Shown: positions 25,543 through 63,996, counted from the first letter of the stretch. The stretch is 64,000 nucleotides of DNA from Bacteroidota bacterium (GCA_025359805.1 JANYDU010000001.1:15421-79420), one strand, 5' to 3'. The notes: generated by a model not told the origin, from the letters alone. Numbers and translations are program-made.

Positions 25543-25655
25543 AAAAATTGAAAATATTAAATATTAATTATATGTTAGCGAATTCAATATCACTTAATAA
25601 AAACTTATCGGATAGGTTTTTATTAGCCATTAATAACCAACTAAACAATACTTAT

Positions 25656-45223: not shown

Positions 45224-46048
45224 GTGCGAAGATTTTTAGTACAACAAAAATATACATTCATCTTGTTAGGATTAGTTCTGGTGGGGCTTAATTCATGCTC
45301 TTACAAAAACAAGAATATTCTTTTTAAAACCAAGAAAGAAGTAAAATCAAATGATCCTGTGAAAGTTATTGAAATAGATAACAAAAATGATTCTTTATCT
45401 ACTTACAGACACAGAATAAAAGTTGGTGATCGTTTACAAGTAAAGTTTTTGAACAATTATGATATTGGACAAGGAGCGTCTCAAAGTGCAACTTCTTTTG
45501 CAAATTCATCAGCAACAGGGGTTGAGGAAAAAGGCTATTTAGTAAATTATGATAGTACTACAACACTACCTTTAATCGGTCGAATTAATATTGTTGGTTT
45601 AACACGTCTTGAGGCCGCAAAAAAATTGGAAGACTTATACAGTAAATTCATTATTAATCCAATTATTGATTTAAATATAGCTAATTTGAGTGTTACAATT
45701 TTAGGAGAAGTAAATATTCCAGGTAAAACAAGAATAGATAAAGAAACTACTACTTTGATTGATGTGATAGCTTTGGCTGGTGGACTTAAAGATTTTGCTA
45801 AAAAAAACCAGAATGCACGAATTATTAGAGGAAATAAAATCATACTTGTTGATTTAGGTAAAATAGGTGCTATTGGAGATCCTGAATTAATAATACACGA
45901 TAATGATGTAATTTACATTGAACCATACGGAGTGAAGGCTGCTACAGAACCATTCAATGCCCTACTGCCAGTTAGTACTTTGTTAATTGCTGTTACACAA
46001 CTAGTAATACTATCTTTTCAACTTTATAACCTCGCCAAAACAAAATGA
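45224..46048 (+). CDS. wza: Polysaccharide export lipoprotein (Wza-like; Poly_export plus SLBB)
   Basis: Lipobox LNSC; IKVGDRL; LPLIGRINIVGLT; VTILGEVNIPG; LIDVIALAGG. Confidence 0.88.
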   Translation: MRRFLVQQKYTFILLGLVLVGLNSCSYKNKNILFKTKKEVKSNDPVKVIEIDNKNDSLSTYRHRIKVGDRLQVKFLNNYDIGQGASQSATSFANSSATGVEEKGYLVNYDSTTTLPLIGRINIVGLTRLEAAKKLEDLYSKFIINPIIDLNIANLSVTILGEVNIPGKTRIDKETTTLIDVIALAGGLKDFAKKNQNARIIRGNKIILVDLGKIGAIGDPELIIHDNDVIYIEPYGVKAATEPFNALLPVSTLLIAVTQLVILSFQLYNLAKTK

Positions 46049-48552
46049 GTGACTCAAAAGAAACTGGATTTTTAGATAACAGAAATAAGGTTATTGATGT
46101 AAATAAGATATTTGTTATCCTTCTATCTAGATGGTATTTGATTGTTGGATCTATTTTAGTTAGTTTACTAACGGCTAATCTTATGCTTCGTTACGCTCAA
46201 CCAATCTATTTAGCAGAACTTACTTTGAAATTAGAAGATGAAAAACCTAATCAACTTAATGATATTTTCAAATTCGGAAGACCTGCTGGAAAATTAGATA
46301 ATCTTTTAAAAACAGAGAGTGAGATTATTAAATCCAGAACTATGGGCATTAAGACTCTAAAAAAATTAAACTACTTTATTACATACTCTATTAAAGGCAG
46401 TATTATTTCAAGAGAGCTCTATCCAAATAATTTTTTTTATATTTCTTATTTATATGTTGATAGTTCCTTTAAAAATAATAAATATGTAATTAAGTTCAAG
46501 AATGTTTCAACATTTGAAATTGGAATTGATGATGGCAATGTTCAACAAAACGACTTTGAAACTCATCATATAAATGACACTTTTATTTTTAATAGGTCAT
46601 TACTAATTGTCAATCTTACAAATGAAAATCTTCTCAAATCATATCTTGGAATACCAATAAACTTTAAGATAAATGATATAGTTTCTTTAGCAAGTTCATA
46701 TTCGAGTAATTTAAATGTTGAAATTGAAAAAGGTGCTAGTATTTTGAATATGAGTTTTAGTTCCAAAAATGCTGAATTCTCAGCAGATTATCTAAATGCT
46801 ATAACTCAAGTTTATATTGATGAGTCAGTAAACTTAAAATCTCAAGCACTTCAACAGACATTAACTTTCTTGAACGACCAACTTATTGACTTATCTCAGA
46901 AAGTAAGAACTTCTCAAAATGATTTGACTAGCTTTAAAACCCAAAACAAGGGGGGAGAATTAGATGATGTTGGTATTAAGCAATTGGATAAGCTTACAAA
47001 ACTAGAAACAGAAAGAAATATTTTACAGTTAAATTTAAGAATGCTTTTACAGTTGGAAGCGAATGTGAAAAATCCGAAAAACAAATCATTGAGCTATATG
47101 ACTTTTGACAATGAAGATTTTCAGGCTCTCCCTCAACTTTTTAGTCTACTTAACATATTATTAATGGAAAAAATTTCCTTATTATCTCAACATACTTCTA
47201 ATAGTCCTATCGTAATTGAAAATCAAAAAAAATTAGATGAAGTCAAGGAATCTATTCTTAAAAATATTGCCTCATTAAAAGAGAAATTAGCAGAAAAGAT
47301 TAATTACAACAATAATTTAATTAGTGAAACCAATGGAGAGCTTTCTTCACTACCCGCTAAACAACAAAACTTAATCAATATGCAAAGGGAGTTTAAGGTA
47401 AATGAAAAAGTTTATAATTATCTTTTAGAAAAGAAGTTGGAAACTTCAATTAGTCGCTCTTCTATTATTTCTAATGCTACTGTAATTGATAATGCGCTTA
47501 TTCCTACAAATCCAATTTCACCCAAAAAAGACAAGAATTATCTAACTGCATTGATTATAGGATTTGGGTTTGGAATGTCTTTAATATTTATAATTCGTCT
47601 TTTAAATCAAAAAATCCCCGACAAAGAAACTATCGAGTCCCTAAGTAATACCCCTGTTATTGGAGTAATTAAAAAAGTGAATTCGGATGAAGAGCAAAAT
47701 GCGGAATATGATGTATATGTTTTTAAGGGGCCCAAATCTATTTTTACAGAATCAATTAGAGGTATTAGGACAAACATCAATTTTATTCTCAAAGGGGAAA
47801 AAAATAAATCAATAAGTGTTACATCTACTGTGAGTGGTGAGGGGAAAACATTTTGCGCTATTAATATTGCAGCATCTTTAACTATGCTTAATTACAAGGT
47901 AATTATTGTTGGTTGTGATTTGAGAAGACCTAAAATACATCTTTCCTTTCAAGGAATGAGTAATGATATTGGTTTAACCACTTACCTTATAAAGAAAAAC
48001 ACACTTGATGAAGTAATTTTAAAAACAGATTTTGAAAATCTATATGTACTTCCTGCTGGACCAACCCCTCCAAATCCAGCCGAATTATTACAAACTGATG
48101 AAATGGAAAAGCTTTCAGCTATTCTTAAAACAGATTTTGATTATGTGATTTTTGATAATGCACCAGTAGGAATTGTCTCTGATGCTTTTTCACTTATGGA
48201 AAAAGCCGACTTGAATTTATTTATCATTAGAGCTCAATATTCAAAACGTGATTTTGCTTTAATTCCTGATAGATTAAAGATAGAAAGTGAAATCCCTAAT
48301 TTATATACTATTTTGAATGCGTATGAAGAGACTTCTGTAACTTATAGTAGTATATACAAATTGGAAAAAGGAGGTGCGGCCTCAGGAGGAGGATATGGTT
48401 ATTATTATGTAGGATATAATGGAGGGTATGGATATTATGGTAAAAAATATTATTCATCTTACTATTCTGGCTATTATAGTGATGAAGAACCTAAACAAAA
48501 ATGGTGGATGAAATTATTCAACAAAAAAAGAAAAAAAACGAACAATGTCTGA
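46045..48552 (+). CDS. wzc: Polysaccharide co-polymerase/BY-kinase (Wzc)
   Basis: Two TM segments; TSTVSGEGKT, GCDLRRP, IFDNAP; C-terminal Tyr cluster. Confidence 0.93.
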   Translation: MSDSKETGFLDNRNKVIDVNKIFVILLSRWYLIVGSILVSLLTANLMLRYAQPIYLAELTLKLEDEKPNQLNDIFKFGRPAGKLDNLLKTESEIIKSRTMGIKTLKKLNYFITYSIKGSIISRELYPNNFFYISYLYVDSSFKNNKYVIKFKNVSTFEIGIDDGNVQQNDFETHHINDTFIFNRSLLIVNLTNENLLKSYLGIPINFKINDIVSLASSYSSNLNVEIEKGASILNMSFSSKNAEFSADYLNAITQVYIDESVNLKSQALQQTLTFLNDQLIDLSQKVRTSQNDLTSFKTQNKGGELDDVGIKQLDKLTKLETERNILQLNLRMLLQLEANVKNPKNKSLSYMTFDNEDFQALPQLFSLLNILLMEKISLLSQHTSNSPIVIENQKKLDEVKESILKNIASLKEKLAEKINYNNNLISETNGELSSLPAKQQNLINMQREFKVNEKVYNYLLEKKLETSISRSSIISNATVIDNALIPTNPISPKKDKNYLTALIIGFGFGMSLIFIIRLLNQKIPDKETIESLSNTPVIGVIKKVNSDEEQNAEYDVYVFKGPKSIFTESIRGIRTNINFILKGEKNKSISVTSTVSGEGKTFCAINIAASLTMLNYKVIIVGCDLRRPKIHLSFQGMSNDIGLTTYLIKKNTLDEVILKTDFENLYVLPAGPTPPNPAELLQTDEMEKLSAILKTDFDYVIFDNAPVGIVSDAFSLMEKADLNLFIIRAQYSKRDFALIPDRLKIESEIPNLYTILNAYEETSVTYSSIYKLEKGGAASGGGYGYYYVGYNGGYGYYGKKYYSSYYSGYYSDEEPKQKWWMKLFNKKRKKTNNV

Positions 48553-50786: not shown

Positions 50787-51299
50787 TTGTTATCCCACTC
50801 CACTCAAAAATGGTATGCACTTTATACCAATCCTAGATCTGAAAAAAAAGTTTTTCACGAGTTGAATATACGTGGGTTTGAAACTTTTTTACCTCTGCAA
50901 AAAACATTAAAACAGTGGAGTGATAGAAAAAAGAAAGTTGAAATTCCATTATTCAATTCTTATATTTTTGTTAAAACTGAATTGGAGAAAAATTATTATG
51001 CTATTCTTGAAATTCCGGGTATCGTAAAATTCGTTAAGTTCGGAAAAGAAATAAATTCAATTAGGGATGAACAGATTGATGCTATAAAATTACTGTTATC
51101 TAATTTTGATGATATTGAGTTGAGTGATGAAATTATTCAGGTATATCAAAAAGTAGAAATCATTGCAGGGCCTTTAACTGGATTTAAAGGGATAACAATT
51201 GAAAACCAAGGCAATAAAAACTTTGCCGTTGAATTGGAACAAATTGGATGCACGCTTCGTGTAAATATTCCTAAGCATTTTATCAAAAAAGTTATTTAA
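50787..51299 (+). CDS. upxY: UpxY-family transcription antiterminator (NusG paralog)
   Basis: WYALYTNPRSEKKV, FLPLQ...QWSDRKKKVEIPLFNSYIFV, KOW VEIIAGPLTG. Confidence 0.92.
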   Translation: MLSHSTQKWYALYTNPRSEKKVFHELNIRGFETFLPLQKTLKQWSDRKKKVEIPLFNSYIFVKTELEKNYYAILEIPGIVKFVKFGKEINSIRDEQIDAIKLLLSNFDDIELSDEIIQVYQKVEIIAGPLTGFKGITIENQGNKNFAVELEQIGCTLRVNIPKHFIKKVI

Positions 51300-51414: not shown

Positions 51415-51945
51415 ATGTTAGATACCTTAATTACTTCTAAGACACGTATAAAATTATTGCTAAAATTCTTCTTGAACGATAATACATCATCGTATCTCAG
51501 GAATTTAGAAAATGAGTTTGGTGAAAGTTCGAATGCTATACGACTAGAGTTAAATAAATTTGAAGAAGCAGGATTATTAAAAACTTCTGTAAGCGGAAAT
51601 AAAAAACTTTTTAAAGCCAACAACACACATCCTTTATTTAAGGATATTCAAAATATTTTAATGAAATATACCGGACTCGATCAAGTGATTGAAGAGGTTA
51701 TACAAAAACTTGGAGATGTTGAGAGAGTTTATCTTGTGGGTGATTTGGCAAAAGGAATTAATAGCTCTGTAGTTGATTTAATTTTTATTGGTAGTTTAAA
51801 TAAAAATTATTTAACAAATTTGATTGGTAAATCGGAAAAAATTATTTCAAAAAAAATCAAATACATTATTTATACAGAAGAAGAATTTTCTATTTATAAA
51901 AAACAATTGAAGGATGAGATTTTCATCTTGTGGATAAAAGAATAA
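51415..51945 (+). CDS. Winged-helix (ArsR-like) regulator fused to a degenerate nucleotidyltransferase-fold domain
   Basis: LITSKTRIKLL..F..SYLRNL..EFGESSNAIRLELNKFEEAGLL; C-domain VYLVGDLAKG..VVDLIFIG. Confidence 0.75.
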   Translation: MLDTLITSKTRIKLLLKFFLNDNTSSYLRNLENEFGESSNAIRLELNKFEEAGLLKTSVSGNKKLFKANNTHPLFKDIQNILMKYTGLDQVIEEVIQKLGDVERVYLVGDLAKGINSSVVDLIFIGSLNKNYLTNLIGKSEKIISKKIKYIIYTEEEFSIYKKQLKDEIFILWIKE

Positions 51946-51956
51946 ATGAATAATAT

Positions 51957-53822
51957 ATGGCTAAAGTATTAGGAATATCAGCATTTTATCATGACTCAGC
52001 GGCAGCAATAGTTGAAAATGGAAAAATTATTGCCGCTGCTCAAGAAGAACGATTTACCAGAAAAAAACATGATCCAAATTTTCCAATCAACGCTGTGAAA
52101 TTTTGCTTAGAATATGCAGGGACAAATGTAAATGAACTTGATACAATAGTATTCTATGATAAACCATTGCTTAAGTTTGAAAGACTACTTGAAACCTATT
52201 ATGCATTTGCTCCCAAAGGCTTACGTTCTTTTATTACTTCTATGCCAGTATGGCTTAAAGAAAAAGTCTTTCTTAAGAAGTTAATACACGATTCTATGAA
52301 AGAAATTGAAGGGTACGATAAGAGTAAAGTTAAGCTTCTTTTCCCTGAACATCATTTATCTCATGCGGCTAGTGCATTTTATCCTTCTTCATTTGAAGAA
52401 TCAGCGATTATAACAATTGATGGTGTTGGCGAATGGGCTACCGCATCAATCTGTCATGGAAAAGGAAATAGTATCACAATATTAAAGGAATTAAAATTCC
52501 CACATTCTTTGGGATTATTATATTCTGCATTCACTTATTTTTTAGGATTTAGAGTTAATTCAGGAGAATATAAATTGATGGGGCTTGCTCCATACGGAAA
52601 TGTAGGGTCAGAAGAAGTAAAAAATTATGTAAAGATTATCAAAAATGAATTAATTGAAATTAACGAGGATGGTTCGGTTTGGATTAATCAAAGCTATTTT
52701 AATTATGCTACTGGTTTGAGGATGGTTAATGATTCTAAGTGGGAAACTCTTTTTGGTTTTAAAAGAAGAAATGCTGAAGACGAACTTGAACAAAAACATT
52801 GTAACTTGGGACTTGCAATACAAGAGGTAACGGAAGAGATAGTATTACTCATGGCACAAGAAGCAAAACGATTAACAGGAAGTGATTACTTATGTATGGC
52901 AGGTGGTGTGGCACTAAATTGTGTTTCAAATGGAAAGCTATTGAATTCAGGAGTTTTTAAAGATATATTTATTACTCCACCCTCTGGAGATGCTGGAGGG
53001 GCATTAGGTGCTGCTTTGGCAGGTGATTATATTTATTTCAATACCCCAAGGATATTATCAGGAAACAGAGATGAATTACAAGGTTCCTATTTAGGTAATG
53101 AAGTAACAGAAGATGATATTAACAGAACCGTCAAAAAATATAAAGCTGTTGCAACCAAATATGATGATGTAAATCAATTATCTAAAGCTACTGCTAAAAT
53201 ATTGAGTGAAGGAAATGTAGTAGGTTGGGTTCAAGGAAGAATGGAATTTGGACCGCGTGCATTGGGAGCAAGAAGTATTTTGGGTGACCCACGAAATGAA
53301 GAAATGCAGAAAAAACTCAATCTTAAAATTAAGTATAGAGAATCATTCAGACCTTTTGCTCCATCGGTATTAGCAGATGACAGTGAGGAATATTTTGATC
53401 ATAAAGGTATTTCTCCTTATATGTTATTGGTTCAACCTGTAAAGAAGGAACGGAGAAAAATACTCCCTGATGGTTATGAAGGGTTTAACTTGAAAGAAAA
53501 ATTATACTATTTGCGTTCGGATTTACCTGCAATCACTCATATTGATTTCTCTGCCAGAATTCAAACGGTTCATAAAGATACTAATCCGAACTACTATGAT
53601 CTCATTTCTGAGTTTAAAAAAATAACGGGTGTTGGAGTGGTAGTAAATACTTCTTTTAATGTAAGGGGTGAACCAATTGTTTGTACATCTGATGATGCTT
53701 ATCGTTGTTTTATGCGTACGGAGATGGATTATTTGGTTGTTGGCAATTATTTGTTTGATAAAAAACAACAGCCTGAATGGCAAAAAACAGATAATTGGCA
53801 GGAAGAATTTGTATTGGATTAA
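51957..53822 (+). CDS. NodU/CmcH-family O-carbamoyltransferase (SxtI-like)
   Basis: LGISAFYHDSAAA, EERF.R.KH, EHHLSHAASAF, DGVGE, GEYKLMGLAPYG, AGGVALN, GRMEFGPRALG.RSI, RE.FRPFAP, NTSFN. Confidence 0.95.
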   Translation: MAKVLGISAFYHDSAAAIVENGKIIAAAQEERFTRKKHDPNFPINAVKFCLEYAGTNVNELDTIVFYDKPLLKFERLLETYYAFAPKGLRSFITSMPVWLKEKVFLKKLIHDSMKEIEGYDKSKVKLLFPEHHLSHAASAFYPSSFEESAIITIDGVGEWATASICHGKGNSITILKELKFPHSLGLLYSAFTYFLGFRVNSGEYKLMGLAPYGNVGSEEVKNYVKIIKNELIEINEDGSVWINQSYFNYATGLRMVNDSKWETLFGFKRRNAEDELEQKHCNLGLAIQEVTEEIVLLMAQEAKRLTGSDYLCMAGGVALNCVSNGKLLNSGVFKDIFITPPSGDAGGALGAALAGDYIYFNTPRILSGNRDELQGSYLGNEVTEDDINRTVKKYKAVATKYDDVNQLSKATAKILSEGNVVGWVQGRMEFGPRALGARSILGDPRNEEMQKKLNLKIKYRESFRPFAPSVLADDSEEYFDHKGISPYMLLVQPVKKERRKILPDGYEGFNLKEKLYYLRSDLPAITHIDFSARIQTVHKDTNPNYYDLISEFKKITGVGVVVNTSFNVRGEPIVCTSDDAYRCFMRTEMDYLVVGNYLFDKKQQPEWQKTDNWQEEFVLD

Positions 53823-53851
53823 GAATTAAAAAATAGCAGAAAAAATTTAAC

Positions 53852-55285
53852 ATGCTTTTTAACGATTTTAGATTTTTCATCTTTTTTGCAATAGTATATG
53901 GGCTATTTCTTGCCACTCCTAAAAAGGGCAAGAACATCATTTTGCTATTGTCAAGTTATGTGTTTTATTCTTTTTGGGATTGGAGGTTTCTTTTATTACT
54001 GATGCTTTCTACATTGATTGATTATTTTTTCGGTATAATAATATATCAAGCAGGAACTACTGAAAAGAAAAAGCGTTACATGTGGTTTGGGATTTTTAAT
54101 AATTTATTGGTATTAGGAGTCTTTAAATATTACAATTTCTTCATTGATTCATTTGCAGGAGTTCTAATTCAAATGGGATTTGAGCCCCATTTTCCAATTC
54201 TTAATATTATCCTTCCTGTTGGAATTTCATTTTATACATTTCATGGAATGTCTTATGTAATAGATATATACAGAAATCAGTGCGTGCCCACAAAAAACTT
54301 TGTTAATTATTCTCTTTTCGTTTCTTATTTCCCTCTATTAGTAGCAGGCCCAATTGAACGCGCAACTCATTTATTGCCACAAATTGAAAATAAAGATAGA
54401 AAAGTTACACGCCAAAATATTATTGATGGATTAACTTTAATCTTAATTGGGTATGTAAAAAAAGTGTTAATTTCAGATAATATTGGTTCCAAAGCGGATT
54501 TTATTTTTGGAAACATTTCAACTTCAGGATCCTTTGAATTACTTACAGGACTTATTATATTTTCTTTCCAAATTTACTTTGATTTTTCTGGATATAGTGA
54601 TATTGGAAGAGGAGTATCGAAGTTGTTCGGAATTGATTTATTGATTAATTTTAATCAGCCTTACCTTTCACAGAATATTTCTGAGTTTTGGAAAAGATGG
54701 CATATCTCTTTATCATCTTGGTTAAGAGATTATCTTTATATCTCTTTGGGAGGAAACAGAAAAGGGAAAAACAAAACATATATAAATTTATTTATTACAA
54801 TGTTATTGGGAGGATTATGGCATGGTGCAAGTTGGAATTTTGTGATATGGGGAGGGTTACATGGAGGGTATTTAGCCATTCATAAAATGTTTGGGGGTAA
54901 TAATAAAACAAATGAAATTCGTATTAATTCATTAACTAATGGGATAAAGGTATTCTTAAATATATTATTAACATATATACTAGTGTTGATTACTTGGCTC
55001 CCATTTAGATCAAAATCATTTTCTGATACGACAAGTTTTGTACGAACATTTTTTCAGTTTAATGGAGGTATTAAATTAGAAGATGTTCTGTATATAGGTT
55101 TTCTGTTTTTTGTGTTTCTTATACTTGATCTTCCTGCATATAAGGCTAATAGCCATACGACATTTATTTACAAGTTACCAAATTGGCTTATAGCTTTGTT
55201 ATTTGTAATTATTAGTATAGCAATTGTGGTTAGTATGGCTATGAATCAAAATAATATCAGACCATTTATATATTTTCAATTTTAA
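53852..55285 (+). CDS. MBOAT O-acyltransferase (AlgI/PatA/DltB family) with terminal FIYFQF motif
   Basis: LPVGISFYTF, FPLLVAGPIER, YFDFSGYSD, NF.QPY, FWKRWHISLSSWLRDYLYI, GLWHGASWNF; ends RPFIYFQF-stop. Confidence 0.95.
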   Translation: MLFNDFRFFIFFAIVYGLFLATPKKGKNIILLLSSYVFYSFWDWRFLLLLMLSTLIDYFFGIIIYQAGTTEKKKRYMWFGIFNNLLVLGVFKYYNFFIDSFAGVLIQMGFEPHFPILNIILPVGISFYTFHGMSYVIDIYRNQCVPTKNFVNYSLFVSYFPLLVAGPIERATHLLPQIENKDRKVTRQNIIDGLTLILIGYVKKVLISDNIGSKADFIFGNISTSGSFELLTGLIIFSFQIYFDFSGYSDIGRGVSKLFGIDLLINFNQPYLSQNISEFWKRWHISLSSWLRDYLYISLGGNRKGKNKTYINLFITMLLGGLWHGASWNFVIWGGLHGGYLAIHKMFGGNNKTNEIRINSLTNGIKVFLNILLTYILVLITWLPFRSKSFSDTTSFVRTFFQFNGGIKLEDVLYIGFLFFVFLILDLPAYKANSHTTFIYKLPNWLIALLFVIISIAIVVSMAMNQNNIRPFIYFQF

Positions 55286-55297
55286 ATATAATTTTAA

Positions 55298-56284
55298 ATG
55301 AAGCTAAAAGAGATTTTAATTAACAGTATTTTTTTTATTGTATCCTTCATAATTGTGTTTGCAATAGCTGAGGTTGGTTTCCGATTTTATACGGATAGAA
55401 AAATGATTTATGATATTGAAATGCACAAGTATGCAAAAAAATTAAAGCAAAGAAGTTCTGTTCCTGGATTGAGTCATGAACACATTCCAAATGCTGAAGC
55501 GAGCTTAATGGGTGTTGACGTTAAGATAAATAGTATAGGATTTAGGGATGATGAATTAAGTAGTCCAAAGAGCTCAAATGAAAAAAGAGTTTTGATTATT
55601 GGGCAATCTATCACTTTTGGCTGGGGAGTTCCAAAAGATTCAATCTTTTTAGAGCAAGTTGAACATAGGTTGAATATGGAGAATGATAGTATTAAATATA
55701 GTTTTATCAATTCTGGTATTGGAAATTATAATACTGAACTAGAAAGTATTCTATTGAAAAAAAATCTACCTATTGTAAACCCTGATATGGTAGTATTACA
55801 TTGCTTTCTTAGAGATGCAGAAGTGATTCCTTCAAAAAGTCAAAATTTTCTGATAGCGAATTCCTACTTAATTGCGTATATGTATATTAAAATAAAGCAA
55901 GCATTTTTTTTTAAAAATCAAGCATATAAAAATATAGGAGAATATTATTTGAATATGTACCAACCGACTTCAGAAGGTTGGAAAAAACAACAAGAAGCAT
56001 TGTTAAATATAAGAAAGCAATGTGAAGAAAGGAACGTTCCTTTACAATTAATTATTCAACCTGATTTGAATGATTTAAGTATAAATTCGCCTCAAGAAAA
56101 ATGTTATCAAATCATTCGAAGTTTTTTAAATGAAAATCATTTTTCATTTATAGACATGAGCGGTGTGTATAGAGAAAAGGTAAAAGTGCCAAACTCGATT
56201 TGGGTAAGTCCTGAAGATTCTCACCCAAATTCAGAAGGACACAAAATAATTGCAGACGAATTAATCAAGGTCTTTAAATATTAA
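55298..56284 (+). CDS. Membrane-anchored SGNH-family acyltransferase/esterase
   Basis: N-terminal TM; IGQSITFG (block I); DSHPNSEGH (DxH). Confidence 0.8.
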   Translation: MKLKEILINSIFFIVSFIIVFAIAEVGFRFYTDRKMIYDIEMHKYAKKLKQRSSVPGLSHEHIPNAEASLMGVDVKINSIGFRDDELSSPKSSNEKRVLIIGQSITFGWGVPKDSIFLEQVEHRLNMENDSIKYSFINSGIGNYNTELESILLKKNLPIVNPDMVVLHCFLRDAEVIPSKSQNFLIANSYLIAYMYIKIKQAFFFKNQAYKNIGEYYLNMYQPTSEGWKKQQEALLNIRKQCEERNVPLQLIIQPDLNDLSINSPQEKCYQIIRSFLNENHFSFIDMSGVYREKVKVPNSIWVSPEDSHPNSEGHKIIADELIKVFKY

Positions 56285-56297
56285 TTACACACTTCTT

Positions 56298-57392
56298 TTG
56301 AAAACATTTAAAAATATTATTTCTGTTACTGTTCCAAGTCTATTGTTCACTTTTCTTTTATTAGAGTTAGTATTCAGATTTGTAATACCTGCCACCGATT
56401 CGCCAAAATATAAATTTAACAATGAGTATGGTTTTTTATGTTTTGATGAAGATCAAAATAGAGAAGGAACTTATAGTGTAGGCAGGTTTGCTGAAATTAG
56501 AACGAAGTGGAAACTAAATAACTATAATTGGAATTGTGCATATGATTTTTCCGAAAAAAAAGATTCTTCTATAAAAAGAATTGTGGTTATCGGTGCCTCT
56601 TATGTTGAAGGCTTACTTGTTAATCAAGATGAGAGTTTTACTTATTATTTAAATGAAAAATTAAAAGGTAAATATGAAGTGTATCCTATAGGAATATCAG
56701 GTGTGCCATTATCAGGATATCCAGATATGATTCGATATTCGATTGATAAATTTAAGCCGGATGTTATTGTCCTTTATAACTATTTTGCGAACTTAAACCA
56801 TTCATTCTATATTGATGGAGAATATAATCTATATAAGAAGATAAGATTGAATAATGATTCTGTTTTATTTGTTGATGCGAAAGAATATCACCCAAGTAGA
56901 TTTAGAAGATTTATTGCTAAATCGGCATTTATAAGATATTTGATAGGTAATCTTCAAATTGAAAAATTAAACTTATTTTTTAATACTAATGAAAATACTA
57001 AAGTTGAAAAACAGGAAAGTGTACCTGTAAATACTGGAGATAAAGATTTAATTTTAGGATGTAATTTTATACTTCAAAACATCAGAAATGAGTCAAAAGA
57101 TATTCCTGTCATTCTTATGCAAGATGTGGCGAGAAGCGAAATATATGATGGAAAGCCAGCAAATCTATTATCTGACTATGAAATGAGATCACTCGTTAAA
57201 TCATCATGTGAACAATATGGAATAAGATATATGGATTTATCAGATTGTTTTATTAATGATTATCAAAAAAATAAGAAAAAATTTGAATACCCTACCGATG
57301 CTCACTGGAATCCCTATGGAAACAAGGTGGTAAGTGACTACATATATAACTATTTATTAACCTGTAATTATTTAAACAATGGACTTCATTAA
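56298..57392 (+). CDS. Membrane-anchored SGNH-family protein (AlgJ/AlgX-like)
   Basis: N-terminal TM; IGASYVEG; DAHWNPYGN. Confidence 0.75.
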   Translation: MKTFKNIISVTVPSLLFTFLLLELVFRFVIPATDSPKYKFNNEYGFLCFDEDQNREGTYSVGRFAEIRTKWKLNNYNWNCAYDFSEKKDSSIKRIVVIGASYVEGLLVNQDESFTYYLNEKLKGKYEVYPIGISGVPLSGYPDMIRYSIDKFKPDVIVLYNYFANLNHSFYIDGEYNLYKKIRLNNDSVLFVDAKEYHPSRFRRFIAKSAFIRYLIGNLQIEKLNLFFNTNENTKVEKQESVPVNTGDKDLILGCNFILQNIRNESKDIPVILMQDVARSEIYDGKPANLLSDYEMRSLVKSSCEQYGIRYMDLSDCFINDYQKNKKKFEYPTDAHWNPYGNKVVSDYIYNYLLTCNYLNNGLH

Positions 57393-57528
57393 AGATCTTC
57401 TAAAATTTATCTCTCAAAGGAAAAAGTTTTTTCTTATTCCTGTCATTATCGTATTGCTTCTTCTTGGAATATTAATTGTTTTAGGGGGTGGATCAGCAAT
57501 TGCACCGTTTATCTATACATTATTTTAA
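57379..57528 (+). CDS. Unannotated 49-aa DUF5989/SxtK-like membrane peptide ending FIYTLF
   Basis: MDFIKDLLKFISQRKKFFLIPVIIVLLLLGILIVLGGGSAIAPFIYTLF-stop; overlaps the upstream stop and ends 2 nt before the next ATG. Confidence 0.88.
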   Translation: MDFIKDLLKFISQRKKFFLIPVIIVLLLLGILIVLGGGSAIAPFIYTLF

Positions 57529-57530
57529 TT

Positions 57531-58640
57531 ATGAAAATACTACTGTACAATTTTTTATCACTTCTATTATTAATTATAGTGGTTGAAGTCGTGCTCAGAT
57601 TTTTTCCAGTTGATGATCCCTATCAGAGTTATAAACAATTCATCAAACCAACATTAATCCGATCGCAATTTCTTCCTCATATGAAACTTGAATTCGAAAA
57701 TGAAGATTCACTTCTTGGTTTCAGTTCTTATATGAAAAAAACAAATTTTACTACTAATTCTATGGGATTTAGAGGTGTTGAGATTGATCCTAAAGATACT
57801 AACTCATTTAGAATATTTTGTATTGGAGGGAGCACAACAGAATGTATGAGATTAAATGATGGAGACGATTGGCCTGGATTAGTTCAAAAGTCATTACCTT
57901 TATTTGAAAACAAGAAGGTTGAAGTTCAGAATTGCGGAAAATCGGGAGACGATCTTCAAGACCATCTTTCTATGTTGATATATCGAGTTGCTTATTTAAA
58001 GCCAGATGTAGTTATCATATTTTCTGGTATTAATGATGTTAGAAGATCTTATTTTGATGATAATCCATACAATATTGAATTAAATCGTATATCAAGAATT
58101 CCTTTTATTAAAATGTGGGCCTCAGAATTCCAATTATATAGACGATTTTATAATGTGATTAAAAACCAATCTGCTCCTTCTGCTGAAAGCATTTCAATAA
58201 AATCAAATTATAAAGAACAAGTAATTTACGAAAAAAAGGCTCCACGTTCGGATAGTGTTCCTCCTGTAGACAATGCTATTTACAGAAGTAAATTAAAATC
58301 TATTATTGGAATTTGTAAAGCAAATAATATAAGATTGATTATAGCTACACAAAAAACGAATTGGACAACAAATGATGTAATGCTTAAAAAATGGCTTTAT
58401 ATGAATTTGATTTATGATGTTGCCTATAATAAAGTTATTCTTCAAATGAAAATGGACGAACTTAATAATATTCAAAAAAGTGTGTGTAGAGATTTTAAAG
58501 TTGAAGTTTTGGATGTAGATTCACTCATTCCTGGTTCAGCAAAATACTTTTACGATGATTGTCACTTTAACCCAGAAGGGAGTATAAAAATGTCAGAACT
58601 TGTATTATCTAAAATTAATAACAAAACCAATATAAAATGA
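57531..58640 (+). CDS. Membrane-anchored SGNH/GDSL-family protein
   Basis: N-terminal TM; IGGSTTEC; SGIND (block III); DDCHFNPEG. Confidence 0.8.
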   Translation: MKILLYNFLSLLLLIIVVEVVLRFFPVDDPYQSYKQFIKPTLIRSQFLPHMKLEFENEDSLLGFSSYMKKTNFTTNSMGFRGVEIDPKDTNSFRIFCIGGSTTECMRLNDGDDWPGLVQKSLPLFENKKVEVQNCGKSGDDLQDHLSMLIYRVAYLKPDVVIIFSGINDVRRSYFDDNPYNIELNRISRIPFIKMWASEFQLYRRFYNVIKNQSAPSAESISIKSNYKEQVIYEKKAPRSDSVPPVDNAIYRSKLKSIIGICKANNIRLIIATQKTNWTTNDVMLKKWLYMNLIYDVAYNKVILQMKMDELNNIQKSVCRDFKVEVLDVDSLIPGSAKYFYDDCHFNPEGSIKMSELVLSKINNKTNIK

Positions 58641-59005
58641 AAACTAATACACATAAAAATGACCTTAAAAGTATACTGGTAATTGTTACTGGATTTTTAG
58701 TTCTGTATTTTTTTACCAAGAATGAATGGCTTTTTTATATAGCTTTATCGGTAGCATTAGTATCATTAATAACTCCATTAGGCCAACATGCAATTTTATG
58801 GATTTGGGAAAAAATAGCGCACGTTTTGGGCTGGATAAATACCAGAATTTTATTGACAATTGTTTTCTACGGATTTTTATTCCCAATATCTTTAATTACA
58901 AGAATAAAATTCAGAAATCTTCTTCAACTTAAAAAACAAGGTAAATCTATTTTTGAAGAACGTAATCACTTATATACTAAAGAAGATCTTGAAAATCCTT
59001 GGTAA
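58637..59005 (+). CDS. SxtJ-family membrane protein
   Basis: Two N-terminal TM segments, then WEKIAHVLGWINTRILLTIVFYGFLFPISLI.R..LL.L...S.F; ends LENPW. Confidence 0.8.
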   Translation: MKTNTHKNDLKSILVIVTGFLVLYFFTKNEWLFYIALSVALVSLITPLGQHAILWIWEKIAHVLGWINTRILLTIVFYGFLFPISLITRIKFRNLLQLKKQGKSIFEERNHLYTKEDLENPW

Positions 59006-59010
59006 GTTTT

Positions 59011-60009
59011 ATGGAATTAAAAAATAAAAAAGTATTAGTTACTGGTGCCGATGGATTTATAGGTAGTCATTTGGTGGAGAGACTTCTTGATGAAGGCTGT
59101 ATCGTAAAAGCATTTTGTTATTATAACTCCTTCAATTCTTGGGGTTGGATTGATTCATTTCCAAAAGAAAAAATAAATCAATTGGAGATTTTTACGGGTG
59201 ATGTGCGCGACCCAAACGGTGTGCGCGAAGCTATGAAAGGCTGTGATATCGTTTTTCATCTTGCAGCACTTATTGCTATTCCTTATAGCTATCATTCACC
59301 AGATAGTTATGTGGATACAAATATTAAAGGTACTTTAAATATCGTTCAAGCTGCAAAAGATTTAGGCTTACAAAAAGTGTTGGTAACCTCAACTTCTGAA
59401 GTTTATGGAACAGCCTTGTATGTTCCTATTGATGAGAAACACCCTCGTCAGGGGCAATCACCTTATTCAGCAACAAAAATTGGAGCAGATCATTTAGCAG
59501 ATTCATTTTACAGGAGTTTTAACTTACCAGTAACTATCGTTCGTCCATTTAATACCTTCGGTCCACGTCAATCTGCGCGTGCCGTTATACCAACAATCAT
59601 TACGCAATTACTTGCAGGAAAAACAGAAATAAAATTAGGAGCCATTCATCCAACACGTGATTTACTTTTTGTAAAAGATACCGCAAATGGTTTTGTTGAA
59701 ATTGCGAAATCTGATTCTACAATTGGTGAAGAAATAAATATTGCCACTTCATCGGAAATTGCGGTAGGAGATTTAGCTCAAAAGCTAATTGATATGATTA
59801 ACCCTTCTGCAAAAATTATAACTGATGATATAAGATTAAGACCAGAAAAAAGTGAGGTGGAAAGATTATTTGGCAGCAATAAAAAAATCCTTGAACTCAC
59901 CAACTGGAAACAACAATTTTCTTTAGATGAAGGTTTGCAACTAACCATTGATTGGTTTAAAAATCCTGAAAATTTACAACGATATAAATCTGACATTTAT
60001 AATGTTTGA
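59011..60009 (+). CDS. legB: NAD-dependent 4,6-dehydratase, LegB family
   Basis: VTGADGFIGSHL, YNSFNSWGW, HLAALIAIPYSYHSP, TSTSEVYG, QSPYSATK, RPFNTFGPRQSARAVIP, RLRPEKSEV.RL. Confidence 0.85.
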   Translation: MELKNKKVLVTGADGFIGSHLVERLLDEGCIVKAFCYYNSFNSWGWIDSFPKEKINQLEIFTGDVRDPNGVREAMKGCDIVFHLAALIAIPYSYHSPDSYVDTNIKGTLNIVQAAKDLGLQKVLVTSTSEVYGTALYVPIDEKHPRQGQSPYSATKIGADHLADSFYRSFNLPVTIVRPFNTFGPRQSARAVIPTIITQLLAGKTEIKLGAIHPTRDLLFVKDTANGFVEIAKSDSTIGEEINIATSSEIAVGDLAQKLIDMINPSAKIITDDIRLRPEKSEVERLFGSNKKILELTNWKQQFSLDEGLQLTIDWFKNPENLQRYKSDIYNV

Positions 60010-61147
60010 TCAAATAACTTCATTCATCAAAAAATATTATAATGCAGCAGAAGGCTTTATTCCATTGCATGAGCCAAGGTTTGTGGGTAATGATAAAAAA
60101 TATGTTTTAGATGCAATTGATTCCACCTATGTTTCATCAGTTGGTAAATACGTGGATCGTTTTGAAGAAATGATTCGTGATTACACTGGAGCTAAATATG
60201 CGATAGCAACAGTTAATGGAAGTGCCGCTTTGCACATGAGTTTAATACTCGCTGGAGTAAAACGTGATGAACTAGTTATCACACAACCGTTATCTTTTAT
60301 TGCCACTTGTAATTGCATTAGCTATATAGGTGCAGAGCCTTTATTTATTGATGTTGATATGCACACCATGGGATTATCTGCGGAAAAATTGGAAGTGTTT
60401 TTAAAAGAGAAAACGGAAATTAAGAATGGTTCGTCTTACCACAAAGAAACAGGTAAACGAATTGCAGCTTGTGTTCCTATGCACACATTTGGTCATCCTG
60501 TTGAATTAGATAAAATGGTTGAGCTGTGTAATCAATATCATATTCAATTAGTTGAAGATGCTGCCGAATCTATTGGCAGTAAATATAAAAATAAACATAC
60601 TGGAACTTTTGGTTTGCTTGGTGCATTCAGTTTCAACGGAAATAAAACAATTACTTGTGGTGGTGGTGGTGTAATTATTACCAACGATGAAAAATTGGGT
60701 AAGCTTGCAAAGCATTTAACAACTCAAGCTAAAGTGCCTCATAAGTGGGATTTTGTGCATGATTATGTGGGGTATAATTATCGACTACCCAATCTAAATG
60801 CAGCACTTGCTTGTGCTCAAATGGAAAAATTGGATGAGTTTATTTCAAACAAAAGAATACTTGCACATCAATATAAAAAATTATTTGAAGGAAGTGAAAT
60901 TAAATTTATGTCTGAGCCTGAAAATTCGTTTTCAAATTATTGGCTTAATAGTATTTTACTTAAAAATAGAGAAGAGCGAAACGCATTTCTTACTTTCTCA
61001 AATGACAAAAAAGTGATGACACGCCCAGCGTGGACGCTTATGAATAAATTAGAAATGTTTAAAAACTGTATTTGTGAAAATATTGATAACGCAGTTGATA
61101 TTGAAAACAGATTGGTAAATTTACCTAGTAGTGTGAAGATTTTTTAA
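60002..61147 (+). CDS. legC: LegC-family (DegT/DnrJ) aminotransferase
   Basis: IPLHEP, STYVSSVGKYVDRFE, VPMHTFGHP, EDAAES, SFNGNKTIT.GGGG, GYNYRLPNLNAA, RP.W..M, NLPSS. Confidence 0.88.
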   Translation: MFDQITSFIKKYYNAAEGFIPLHEPRFVGNDKKYVLDAIDSTYVSSVGKYVDRFEEMIRDYTGAKYAIATVNGSAALHMSLILAGVKRDELVITQPLSFIATCNCISYIGAEPLFIDVDMHTMGLSAEKLEVFLKEKTEIKNGSSYHKETGKRIAACVPMHTFGHPVELDKMVELCNQYHIQLVEDAAESIGSKYKNKHTGTFGLLGAFSFNGNKTITCGGGGVIITNDEKLGKLAKHLTTQAKVPHKWDFVHDYVGYNYRLPNLNAALACAQMEKLDEFISNKRILAHQYKKLFEGSEIKFMSEPENSFSNYWLNSILLKNREERNAFLTFSNDKKVMTRPAWTLMNKLEMFKNCICENIDNAVDIENRLVNLPSSVKIF

Positions 61148-61166
61148 TATAAATAAGAGACGATAA

Positions 61167-62966
61167 GTGTTTATAGATTACTGTAAAAAATTACTCATAC
61201 TTCTTACCAATAAAGAAAAAAAGAAATTACTTTTTCTTGCCTTATTAATGATTTTGGGTTCCATATCCGAAATAGTAGGAATTGGTGCACTTCCCGGATT
61301 TATTGCACTTATTGCAAAACCTGAAATGATTCAAAAAATTCCATTTGTATATCGTATAATTCAGCAATTAGGAATTACTTCCCAAAACGATTTGTTAATT
61401 TGGGGGTCTGTTTTTTTGATTATTATTTTTATTTTCAAAAATGGCTATCTTACTTTTTTGGCATACTATAAATCAAAGATTGTATTTGATATTCAGCTTA
61501 GGATGAGTTTTGACCTATTTAAATCCTATTTAAAAGCGCCATATTCTTTTCATTTAAATAGAAATTCATCAGAGTTGCTAAGCAATGTATATGATTCGGT
61601 AAAGATGATAATTGTGGGGGTGATAATTCCATTAATTTCAATTGTTATGGAATCATTACTTTTATTATTGGTTATGGGATTATTGGTTTTTATAGAGCCA
61701 GTTATTTCGCTTATAACAATATTCGTATTTGGTTTTTCGGGATTTATATATTTGAGGTACACAAAAAATAAATCCGTAAATTTTGGAAAGGAATTACAAA
61801 AATTAAGAGATGTTGTATTTAAAATTGTTACCGAAGGTTTGGTAGGATTTAAAGACGCTCGAGTACTTAACAGGGAAGATTATTTTATCAACCACTTTTA
61901 TACAAGTTCTGACAGAAATGCTAAAGGGCTTATGCACCAATCATTTACTAATAGCATAACAAAGCCCATTCTTGAAACTATTGCAATGATTGTAATGCTA
62001 TCCATTACTATTTCATTAGTTGTTAGAAATAATGACATATCGAGCATCCTTCCTTCCTTAGCTTTATTTGGTTTTGCCTCAATCAGACTTTTACCTTCTA
62101 TTAGCATTATTTTATCAGGATTTTCGAGTTTGAGATTTAGCTTTCCATCTATAAATCCAGTATGGAAAGATATGGAGTACTTGAAAAATGAAAAAGTTTC
62201 TCAGGATAGAATTTTTGATGAACATTCTAATGTATCACTCCAAAAACAAATTGAATTTAAAAATGTGAGTTATCAATATCCTGGAGCAGTTACTCAATCT
62301 TTAAAAGATATTAATATTAATATTCCAATGGGTAAGGCTATAGCTTTTGTTGGTTCTTCAGGGGCAGGAAAAACAACTATTGTAGATGTTACACTTGGAT
62401 TATTGCAGCCATCATTCGGAAAGATATTTGTAGATGGAATTGACATACATACAAATATTCCTTCTTGGCAAAAGCAAATTGGTTATATCCCTCAGCATAT
62501 TTTCTTAGCGGATAATTCTATTAGAAATAATATCGCTTTTGGAATTGATGAATCAGAAATTGATGATGTAAAAATTTGGGATGCAATTCGCCTCTCACAA
62601 TTAGAATCATTAATATTAGAATTACCTGAAGGGATTTATACAAATATTGGAGAACGTGGTGTAAGATTCTCTGGTGGTCAGCGTCAACGAATTGGTATTG
62701 CTAGAGCTTTATATCATAATCCTAAAATTCTTATTATGGATGAAGCTACATCTGCACTAGATAATATTACCGAAAAATATATTGTCCAAGAAATGGAAGC
62801 ATTAAAAGGCTCTCGAACTATAATTATCATAGCACATCGTTTAACCACAGTAATGAATTGTGATACTATTTATTTTATGGATAAAGGTGGAATAATAGAT
62901 CAAGGAAGTTATGACAGTTTGATCGAAAATAATCTTGCATTTAAAAAAATGGCACTTGTTGAATAA
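61167..62966 (+). CDS. ABC exporter, fused permease/ATPase (PglK/HetA-like glycan flippase)
   Basis: TM domain; GSSGAGKT; GERGVRFSGGQRQRIGIARALY; MDEATSALD; IAHRL. Confidence 0.9.
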   Translation: MFIDYCKKLLILLTNKEKKKLLFLALLMILGSISEIVGIGALPGFIALIAKPEMIQKIPFVYRIIQQLGITSQNDLLIWGSVFLIIIFIFKNGYLTFLAYYKSKIVFDIQLRMSFDLFKSYLKAPYSFHLNRNSSELLSNVYDSVKMIIVGVIIPLISIVMESLLLLLVMGLLVFIEPVISLITIFVFGFSGFIYLRYTKNKSVNFGKELQKLRDVVFKIVTEGLVGFKDARVLNREDYFINHFYTSSDRNAKGLMHQSFTNSITKPILETIAMIVMLSITISLVVRNNDISSILPSLALFGFASIRLLPSISIILSGFSSLRFSFPSINPVWKDMEYLKNEKVSQDRIFDEHSNVSLQKQIEFKNVSYQYPGAVTQSLKDININIPMGKAIAFVGSSGAGKTTIVDVTLGLLQPSFGKIFVDGIDIHTNIPSWQKQIGYIPQHIFLADNSIRNNIAFGIDESEIDDVKIWDAIRLSQLESLILELPEGIYTNIGERGVRFSGGQRQRIGIARALYHNPKILIMDEATSALDNITEKYIVQEMEALKGSRTIIIIAHRLTTVMNCDTIYFMDKGGIIDQGSYDSLIENNLAFKKMALVE

Positions 62967-62976
62967 TTATAATACT

Positions 62977-63996
62977 ATGGCTTTAGATCTAAACAATAAA
63001 TCAATTTTAATTACTGGTGGAACAGGTTCCTTAGGAAAAGAACTTACCAAAACTATTTTACAAAAATGGCCAAATGTAAAACGCTTAATTATATACTCAC
63101 GAGATGAACAAAAGCAGTTTCAAATGGCTCAAGAATATCCAGAATCAATATATAAATCGGTAAGATATTTTATTGGTGATGTGAGAGATTTGGAAAGACT
63201 AAAAAGAGCATTTACTAACGTAGATTATGTTATTCATGCGGCAGCTATGAAACACGTACATATTGCCGAATACAATCCTGATGAGTGTGTGAAAACAAAT
63301 GTTGGTGGTGCTGAAAATGTAATTAAAGCAGCTCTTGATTCAAGTGTTACAAAAGTTGTAGCACTATCAACTGATAAAGCTTGTGCACCAATTAATCTCT
63401 ATGGAGCTACTAAACTAACTTCAGATAAATTGTTTATAGCTGCAAATAACATAAAAGGAAATAAAGATATTAAATTTTCTGTGGTTCGTTACGGAAATGT
63501 AATGGGGTCAAATGGTTCTGTTATTCCTTTCTTTTTGAATAAAAGGAAAGAAGGGGTTTTGCCAATTACCGATCCCAATATGACACGTTTTAATATCTCA
63601 TTAACTGGTGGAGTTGATATGGTTCTTCATGCGTTAGATGAGGCTTGGGGTGGCGAAGTTTTTGTTCCCAAAATACCATCTTATAAAATTATGGATGTGG
63701 CGAAAGCTATTGGTCCTGAATGTGAGCATCGTGTTGATGGAATCAGACCCGGAGAAAAAATTCATGAAGAAATGATTACCAGTTCAGATTCATTTACAAC
63801 TTATGACTTAGGGAAATATTATGTAATACTTCCTCAAGTTCCCAATTGGGATTTACAAGAATATCTTAAACATTTCGATGCTCAATTAGTAAAAATTGGA
63901 TTCAGTTATTCATCTGGAGAAAATACAGAATGGGAGACAGTAGAGAGTTTAAGAAAATTAATTTCCGAACACGTAGACTCAACTTTTATCGTTTAA
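62977..63996 (+). CDS. pseB: UDP-GlcNAc 4,6-dehydratase (inverting), PseB family
   Basis: ITGGTGSLG, SRDEQKQ, HAAAMKHV..AEYNP.EC.KTN, LSTDKA..PINLYGATK, RYGNV.GS.GSVIP, GIRPGEK.HE. Confidence 0.9.
   Translation: MALDLNNKSILITGGTGSLGKELTKTILQKWPNVKRLIIYSRDEQKQFQMAQEYPESIYKSVRYFIGDVRDLERLKRAFTNVDYVIHAAAMKHVHIAEYNPDECVKTNVGGAENVIKAALDSSVTKVVALSTDKACAPINLYGATKLTSDKLFIAANNIKGNKDIKFSVVRYGNVMGSNGSVIPFFLNKRKEGVLPITDPNMTRFNISLTGGVDMVLHALDEAWGGEVFVPKIPSYKIMDVAKAIGPECEHRVDGIRPGEKIHEEMITSSDSFTTYDLGKYYVILPQVPNWDLQEYLKHFDAQLVKIGFSYSSGENTEWETVESLRKLISEHVDSTFIV

Follow-up and report, generated by a model that had tools for sequence, protein, structure and literature searches.

A carbamoyltransferase–SxtJ–SxtK–SGNH Cassette in a Bacteroidota Surface-Glycan Locus: a Candidate Tyrosine-Shuttle System for Envelope Modification

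A stretch of 64,000 nucleotides from a Bacteroidota bacterium (GCA_025359805.1, JANYDU010000001.1:15421-79420; hereafter the window), belonging to a metagenome-assembled genome of 2.47 Mb that is 84% complete, contains a seven-gene cassette that encodes homologues of the saxitoxin-cluster proteins SxtI, SxtJ, SxtK, and SxtL together with an MBOAT protein. The gene order is carbamoyltransferase (CT)–MBOAT–SGNH1–SGNH2–SxtK–SGNH3–SxtJ, with all genes on the + strand (Table 1). The genes are tightly packed, with spacers of no more than 29 nt or, elsewhere, overlaps, of which that between the 3′ end of SGNH2 and the start of SxtK is 14 nt. An earlier description of the region made from the nucleotide sequence without database searches (the sequence-only reading) had named CT, SxtJ, SxtK/DUF5989, GDSL/SGNH, and MBOAT families between upxY and legB, and profile matches bear out each of these assignments; in hidden Markov model searches, SxtJ and SxtK both exceed their Pfam cut-offs, SxtJ by a small margin. 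The flanking genes were also placed correctly, except that a 176-aa gene intervenes between upxY and the CT gene. The combination of genes is far beyond chance, and CT, SxtJ, and SxtK, usually with an SGNH protein, recur in well over 100 loci from many phyla.

A genome of the same genus (G401) encodes an orthologue of the 176-aa regulator-like protein (87% identical), followed by about 110 nt and then by legB (93% identical) and legC, and the seven-gene block is missing. Because the regulator gene is joined directly to legB in that genome, the capsule or O-antigen locus, which is under UpxY control, carries the block as an optional cassette. Its junctions, as defined by the comparison with G401, coincide exactly with the stop codon of the regulator gene and the start of legB. 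Alignment with the congener indicates that legB most likely starts at ATG 59011 and not at TTG 58999, the start of an open reading frame (ORF) that overlaps sxtJ. Among genomes of the same family, DUF5989 is present in 35 of 119, and it occurs in none of the three congeners. Regulator orthologues also precede CT modules in three loci from other genera of the family, where the same slot is occupied by regulator–CT–K–SGNH3–J (L085), by regulator–SDR–CT–SGNH2–K–J (L096), and by an arrangement ending in CT–K–SGNH–J–LegB–LegC (L094). The arrangement in the window resembles that of L085, with MBOAT–SGNH1–SGNH2 added between CT and SxtK.

Table 1. Positions of the cassette genes and of other genes of the glycan locus, counted from the first nucleotide of the window.
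Feature	Position	Strand	Basis or remark
UpxY-family NusG-like antiterminator	50787..51299	+	Head of the glycan operon (flank, outside the cassette); NF033644 143.3 bits (cut-off 100); PF02357 1e-21
176-aa putative regulator, winged helix-turn-helix-like	51415..51945	+	Conserved left cassette border, between upxY and CT
CT, soluble, SxtI/NodU/TobZ type, Kae1-like N-terminal and YrdC-like C-terminal domain	51957..53822	+	PF02543 3e-91; PF16861 1e-74
MBOAT, AlgI/PatA/DltB type	53852..55285	+	PF03062 3e-29, 102.7 bits (cut-off 27)
SGNH1, N-terminally anchored, SxtL-like family, directly after MBOAT	55298..56284	+	Family profile and phmmer; Pfam sub-threshold
SGNH2, anchored, SxtL-like	56298..57392	+	Family profile and phmmer; Pfam sub-threshold
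DUF5989/SxtK microprotein, 49 aa	57379..57528	+	PF19451 85.2 bits (cut-off 27), profile positions 1-49 of 49
SGNH3, anchored, SxtL-like, between SxtK and SxtJ	57531..58640	+	PF13472 56 bits, above Pfam cut-off
SxtJ-family small membrane protein	58637..59005	+	PF19588 27.7 bits (cut-off 24.4; marginal)
legB and legC, legionaminic-acid pathway	58999..61147	+	Right cassette border; TIGR04180 505.5 bits (cut-off 475); TIGR04181 541.2 bits (cut-off 420)
Wza-like exporter	45224-46048	+	PF02563
Wzc-like kinase	46045-48552	+	Upstream part of the glycan locus
TviB-type UDP-GlcNAc dehydrogenase and TviC-like epimerase	Between the Wzc-like kinase and UpxY	+	Glycan locus

Both domains of the CT are full length (PF02543 profile positions 1-346 of 346; PF16861 1-170 of 170), and the protein aligns over its full length with the solved structures of GdmN, NovN, and TobZ (E 8e-87 to 5e-75; residues 9-607 against GdmN). 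It carries the GPRALGARS motif (EFGPRALGARSILGDPR); GPRALG(x)RS has been put forward as the putative catalytic site of SxtI (bioRxiv 10.64898/2026.06.11.731795). With 145 bits against the NodU model, for which the cut-off is 1000, the CT is not a NodU equivalog. Its two-domain fold is that of the HypF/HypE system, TobZ, GdmN, NovN, NodU, and WapO (full-length alignment E about 1e-85). Enzymes of the TobZ, GdmN, NovN, NodU, WapO, and HypF types are not known to require membrane partners of the SxtJ/SxtK type.

The SxtK microprotein consists of an amphipathic N-terminus, the sequence RKK, one transmembrane helix, and the C-terminal sequence FIYTLF (nt 57508-57525); the RKK ahead of the helix predicts an N-in, C-out topology. 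In alignment A1, residues F10, K15, L19, P21, P43, F44, Y46, and F49 do not vary, and F-[IVL]-Y-x-x-F is the exact C-terminal end of every one of the 160 DUF5989 proteins retrieved, 155 of which are distinct. The FXYXXF motif has been described as an "acyl shuttle," the tyrosine of which holds D-Ala on DltX and acetyl on the PatA C-terminus, as shown experimentally (PMC12148441, citing Schultz et al., 2023). From the tyrosine the group moves to the catalytic serine of DltD or PatB, both of them SGNH proteins that modify an envelope polymer, so that the published Dlt route leads from acyl-Tyr on the tail via acyl-Ser on the SGNH protein to the polymer (PMC12148441). The Dlt pathway (DltB, DltX, DltD) and the cassette have in common a single-pass microprotein ending in FxYxxF and an adjoining membrane-anchored SGNH-type enzyme; the donor in Dlt is DltA/DltC with an MBOAT protein, whereas that in the cassette is predicted to be a soluble ATP-dependent carbamoyltransferase. 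In the whole genome, five of 10,174 ORFs of at least 40 aa end in F.Y..F, against a chance expectation of 1.3, and these comprise SxtK, three MBOATs, and a junk frame of 60 aa. The tail motif of SxtK suggests a possible working mode for the orphan genes sxtJ, sxtK, and sxtL. No paper tying DUF5989 to the acyl-shuttle motif was found in a literature search of partial coverage, and searches for DUF5989, or for carbamoyltransferase together with SGNH and polysaccharide, yielded nothing relevant. An exact-sequence look-up of the SxtK of the window returned no record. Long frames that seemed to fuse DUF5989 or SxtJ with larger proteins were rejected as natural fusions, since they contain no further domain and probably reflect over-extension of ORFs in high-GC DNA.

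SGNH1, SGNH2, and SGNH3 form one family (alignment A2) and are its sole members in the genome. Their SGNH catalytic residues are intact: in alignment A2, which comprises 33 sequences including all three paralogues, S101 (block I) and H345 (block V) are invariant, and the Gly of block II and the Asp of block III are nearly so. Each of the three proteins has an N-terminal transmembrane helix with a conserved Glu. This intramembrane Glu (E19 of SGNH3), which lies in the motif E-x-x-L-R, shows conservation of at least 90% among SxtK-associated SGNHs from different phyla and may be an intramembrane contact. All three proteins match SGNHs that adjoin SxtK in Microcoleus and Trichodesmium (phmmer E 4e-10 to 9e-7; 4e-10 for SGNH1 against the Microcoleus protein). 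The best relative of SGNH1 (3e-31) belongs to a SAR11 J–SGNH–SGNH–K–CT module that has no MBOAT, orthologues of SGNH2 are found at the CT–SGNH–K position in L096 (1e-68) and L070 (5e-46), and an orthologue of SGNH3 occupies the same position in L085 (5e-144). The AlphaFold2 model of SGNH3 (predicted local distance difference test, pLDDT, 83) has a confident transmembrane helix at residues 2-23 and an SGNH core. Its best structural match is CgnD, an SGNH hydrolase of the crocagin cluster (PDB 8a2n; Foldseek E 4e-9, TM 0.48 and 0.58), and that cluster likewise encodes a carbamoyltransferase, CgnI (PMC10070186). CgnD differs in that it is a soluble, slow leader peptidase for a peptide of ribosomal origin modified after translation (RiPP), shares only 14% identity with SGNH3, and comes from a cluster with no reported SxtJ or SxtK. 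A search of the SGNH family profile against PDB sequences confirms the SGNH superfamily and does not separate transferases from hydrolases.

The MBOAT protein of the cassette also has an FxYxxF tail, its sequence ending in RPFIYFQF (FIYFQF at residues 472-477; nt 55265-55282). It scores 162 bits (2e-47) against the DltB model TIGR04091, below the cut-off of 375, and is, on this comparison, related to DltB but not DltB itself; its last 61 residues give a weak match to the DUF5989 profile (E 0.066). In its tail (FIYANF in NgPatA) and in the anchored SGNH protein that follows it, it resembles the PatA/PatB and AlgI/AlgJ/AlgX systems, from which it differs in that its SGNH protein is of the SxtL-like family and the pair is embedded inside a carbamoyltransferase module. 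The two other MBOATs of the genome (C23:75120-76586, L202:5121-6587; and C47:49835-51280, L203:4836-6281) likewise end in FIYFQF, and the gene after each encodes a protein of about 310 aa that has no Pfam match and has SGNH-like motifs (ILGSS..., D..HLN); the locus of one of these two MBOATs is of the nonulosonic-acid type and also encodes a cytidylyltransferase and a UDP-GlcNAc 2-epimerase. BLASTP of SGNH1 against these partners of about 310 aa found no similarity. A partner of that type is missing beside the cassette MBOAT, and an SxtL-like SGNH takes the position after it. Because the other two MBOATs precede unrelated proteins, the cassette MBOAT appears to use an SxtL-like SGNH. MBOAT as a general component of the module was considered and rejected, since it lies within 10 kb of SxtK in none of 40 Bacteroidota loci and is absent from nearly all of 80 loci from other phyla, a few loci (L084, L090, L092, and L157) having one near the module.

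These features are brought together here, with moderate confidence, in a scheme in which carbamoyl is loaded by the CT onto the tyrosine of SxtK and passed by an SGNH protein to an exported glycan, as one of two interleaved tyrosine-shuttle systems. In the first system, the cytoplasmic CT would make carbamoyl-AMP out of carbamoyl phosphate and ATP, and the carbamoyl would be transferred to Tyr46 in the FIYTLF tail of SxtK as an O-carbamate, with SxtJ as a membrane scaffold; an anchored SGNH would then accept the group on its catalytic serine and transfer it to a sugar hydroxyl of the exported glycan outside the cytoplasm. In the second, the MBOAT protein would use its own FIYFQF tail to supply acyl, probably in the form of acetyl, to a different member of the SGNH family. 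Putative elements of this scheme are the carbamoyl-tyrosine intermediate, the membrane side on which transfer takes place, the identity of the acceptor, and the pairing of individual SGNHs with the two shuttles. A carbamoyl shuttle is chemically plausible because HypF, a member of the same superfamily as the CT, carbamoylates the C-terminal cysteine of HypE, which provides a precedent for carbamoylation of a C-terminal residue of a protein, and because aryl carbamates carbamoylate serine hydrolases. In addition, the MBOAT with the same kind of tail shares the SGNH family of the operon, which argues that the SGNH enzymes read the tail regardless of the protein that carries it.

The tail could also be accounted for if SxtK were a DltX-like partner of the MBOAT pathway in acetyl or aminoacyl transfer, with the CT functionally independent and merely co-located. 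The architecture of SxtK as a single-pass microprotein with a C-terminal FxYxxF is that of DltX, and an MBOAT gene is present in this operon and near the module in the four loci named above. However, the cassette MBOAT already bears its own tail, an MBOAT within 10 kb is absent from every one of the 40 Bacteroidota loci and from almost all of the 80 in other phyla, and SxtK co-occurs with CT and SxtJ even where their genes are unlinked, so that such a role for SxtK is considered very improbable.

Co-occurrence of SxtK with the CT extends across a wide range of bacteria. The module of CT, SxtJ, SxtK, and anchored SGNH is present in at least 10 phyla, and a pattern scan of species-representative genomes located at least 600 stretches, in Bacteroidota, Cyanobacteriota, Pelagibacteraceae, Nitrospira, Acidobacteriota, Verrucomicrobiota, Elusimicrobia, Patescibacteria, and several proteobacterial classes. 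Of 401 genomes sampled in each group, 148 in Bacteroidota and 78 in cyanobacteria contain DUF5989. The genes for CT, SxtJ, and SxtK adjoin one another in 29 of 40 loci from Bacteroidota, 17 of 20 from the same family, and about 70 of 80 from other phyla; most module loci have anchored SGNH genes adjoining the trio, usually one to five. Where SxtK is unlinked (five genomes), every genome still encodes exactly one CT and one SxtJ. The marginal Pfam match of the SxtJ of the window is supported by this synteny and by an iterated SxtJ profile, which recovers 124 homologues adjoining SxtK and CT. The analysis of gene neighbourhoods proposed in the sequence-only reading thus reveals a conserved module that extends far beyond saxitoxin producers.

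Departures from the common arrangement are found in both Bacteroidota and cyanobacteria. In two other Bacteroidota families (L046:5741-10132 and L059:5844-10146), DUF5989 lies directly upstream of carA–carB on the same strand, with the CT and SxtJ genes elsewhere in the genome. The carA–carB genes encode carbamoyl phosphate synthetase, and this adjacency, as a link to the supply of carbamoyl phosphate, is counted in favor of the carbamoyl shuttle. In four further Bacteroidota loci (L058:9951-12736, and also L069, L055, and L044), DUF5989 divergently adjoins a gene pair for MacB/FtsX-type permeases, with no CT alongside. In some cyanobacteria with genomes of 3.6-4 Mb (L204, L206, and L207; e.g., L206:7970-13234), a GT4 glycosyltransferase is followed by SxtJ and SxtK with no adjacent TobZ-type CT, and the carbamoyltransferase HypF is encoded about 1 kb away on the opposite strand.

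The sxtI-J-K-L genes of saxitoxin clusters represent the same four families as the cassette (TobZ/NodU-type CT, PF19588, PF19451 of about 50 aa, and GDSL/SGNH). The cassette differs from the sxt cluster in that it has no toxin pathway, lies in a surface-glycan operon, and has three SGNH paralogues, an added MBOAT, and another gene order; the comparison with sxtIJKL was made by family and through the homologues of non-toxic cyanobacteria. In non-toxic Oscillatoriales (Microcoleus, Tychonema, and Lyngbya), CT–J–K is followed by three SGNH paralogues of 410-445 aa, which corresponds to the order sxtI-J-K-L, and in Trichodesmium J–K is followed by five SGNH paralogues, with no CT detected within the stretch. 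An ancestry of sxtI, J, K, and L in common with genes of Lyngbya and Trichodesmium has been described (PMC2679770; PMC2885083; PMC2684587, the last of which contains the sxtL link). The statement in the sequence-only reading that SxtJ and SxtK have no established function agrees with the saxitoxin literature, in which sxtJ and sxtK are hypothetical genes already assumed to act with SxtI (PMC2679770), and SxtL has been considered a possible decarbamoylase (PMC2885083; PMC2679770). Twenty cyanobacterial SxtK loci that were compared contain ordinary modules or J–K pairs beside GT4, and none is a toxin cluster. Among the matches listed in protein searches, those to the Microcoleus SGNH were all near-identical Microcoleus proteins and those to the Microcoleus SxtK were all from non-toxic taxa, and UniRef labels some DUF5989 proteins of non-toxic cyanobacteria "SxtK." Because the module is far more widespread than saxitoxin, recruitment of a housekeeping-type module into the toxin cluster would be the economical direction.

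Several observations weigh against a carbamoyl shuttle that ends on an exported glycan. The weak point is the crossing of the membrane by carbamoyl: the CT is soluble, and nothing in SxtJ suggests a conduit. The AlphaFold2 model of SxtJ (pLDDT 88) has three helices (residues 5-27, 30-45, and 47-91), and alignment A3 has just two invariant positions, W57 and P83, while no His, Ser, Tyr, or charged residue is conserved, so SxtJ is probably a scaffold rather than a catalyst. The solved CT relatives TobZ, GdmN, and NovN directly carbamoylate their final small-molecule substrates. No DltX-type family was retrieved for SxtK and two homologues with Pfam-A models at E values up to 10, the matches being DUF5989 and, at E 1.2, DUF5976. 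SxtK thus differs from DltX in profile as well as in the group carried, which would be carbamoyl, and the tail is therefore regarded as a shared device that does not imply membership of the same family. The nearest Foldseek neighbors of SGNH3 are CgnD and then generic SGNH esterases, with PatB, DltD, and AlgX outside the top 50, and for this reason a transferase role is not favored over that of a hydrolase. Positive-inside charge counts at the SGNH anchors are not decisive on topology. Finally, in Microcoleus and in several of the SAR11 places (most of those examined), the module lies amid housekeeping genes and not glycan genes.

Part of this evidence fits another route, in which the cytoplasmic CT, working at the inner membrane face, transfers carbamoyl straight to a nucleotide-sugar or to a repeat unit on undecaprenyl, SxtJ and SxtK only anchor or regulate it, and the SGNHs are esterases that trim O-acetyl or carbamoyl groups. 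Action on the final substrate is the habit of the CT relatives, SxtJ has no catalytic signature, the fold of SGNH3 is near those of esterases and hydrolases, the proposal of SxtL as a decarbamoylase (PMC2885083; PMC2679770) points the same way, and WapO is thought to carbamoylate the lipopolysaccharide core of Pseudomonas during inner-core assembly (PMC8005017). This route nevertheless leaves unexplained the invariant end of SxtK in 160 of 160 proteins, which is identical to a proven acyl-carrying motif, the anchored SGNH genes that travel with the trio across phyla, and the pairing in this operon of an MBOAT bearing the same tail with an SGNH of that family. Direct carbamoylation in the cytoplasm is judged less likely than a tyrosine shuttle but reasonable, and it is the strongest of the alternatives.

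The housekeeping contexts in Microcoleus and SAR11, where the module stands alone, would also be expected if the module had a target other than the glycan of the locus (peptidoglycan, for example, or else a lipid or some small metabolite) and its placement in a glycan locus were incidental. The module of saxitoxin producers serves a small alkaloid (PMC2679770). In the window, however, the cassette is fitted exactly between the regulator gene and legB with tight or overlapping genes, other genera of the family have related cassettes in this slot (L085, L094, and L096), and the Nitrospira module lies among genes for GT4, a methyltransferase, and a polysaccharide deacetylase; a target unrelated to the glycan is therefore considered improbable. 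The sequence-only reading had suggested that the module is natively a device for envelope-glycan carbamoylation that was recruited into toxin synthesis. That proposal is supported in part: the wide distribution of the module, the glycan locus in the window, and the optional nature of the cassette agree with it, whereas the surroundings in Microcoleus and several SAR11 genomes do not.

Between 44 and 64 kb the window is a single glycan locus on the + strand. The protein encoded by the 176-aa gene has no Pfam or NCBIfam match, and its look-alikes in the Atlas are Bacteroidota clusters of the ArsR/PaaX/DeoR helix-turn-helix type, which serve as a lead only; the gene is conserved between upxY and decoration or Leg genes in several genera. 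Downstream of legB–legC lie a PglK/MsbA-like ABC exporter and then PseB, so that the region 58999-63996 encodes, in one operon, proteins for legionaminic acid (LegB, LegC) and for pseudaminic acid (PseB), all of which exceed their equivalog cut-offs, with the exporter between them. A scan for promoters and terminators of the operon gave no sites above those of shuffled sequence; the sigma-70 consensus used is ill-suited to Bacteroidota. Elsewhere in the window, one ORF of 2549 aa occupies positions 25548-33197 on the + strand.

The cassette is thus viewed, with about even confidence, as a tyrosine-shuttle envelope-modification system that has a carbamoyltransferase as donor and a mechanism open to test. 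To our knowledge, no function of SxtJ, SxtK (DUF5989), or SxtL has been tested since the saxitoxin cluster was described, and the tail motif provides a concrete, testable mechanism modelled on the proven chemistry of DltX and PatA. The window contributes to it the congener pair with and without the cassette, the MBOAT that shares both tail and SGNH family, the adjacency of SxtK and carAB in other Bacteroidota families, and the CgnD match. The congener pair is clean material for comparative glycan chemistry, and should the shuttle fail, the block would still be well defined as an accessory cassette for decoration in a legionaminic/pseudaminic-acid glycan locus. More tentatively, CT–SxtJ–SxtK–SGNH may represent a further class of trans-envelope group transfer beside MBOAT–SGNH, AT3–SGNH, and Dlt, in which a tyrosine O-carbamate on a 50-residue microprotein would be passed to an extracytoplasmic SGNH transferase and of which SxtIJKL would be a recruited copy. 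DUF5989 occurs in roughly a third of the sampled Bacteroidota genomes and a fifth of the cyanobacterial ones, as well as in the abundant marine SAR11. If the shuttle is real, the window would hold a naturally occurring hybrid, with the MBOAT tail as shuttle for acyl and SxtK as shuttle for carbamoyl, both supplying paralogous SGNHs on one glycan, and the last carbamoylation step of saxitoxin would take place at or across the membrane. It would constitute a new mode of carbamoylation of bacterial surface polymers, explain three orphan genes of the toxin cluster, and provide a function for a large domain of unknown function.

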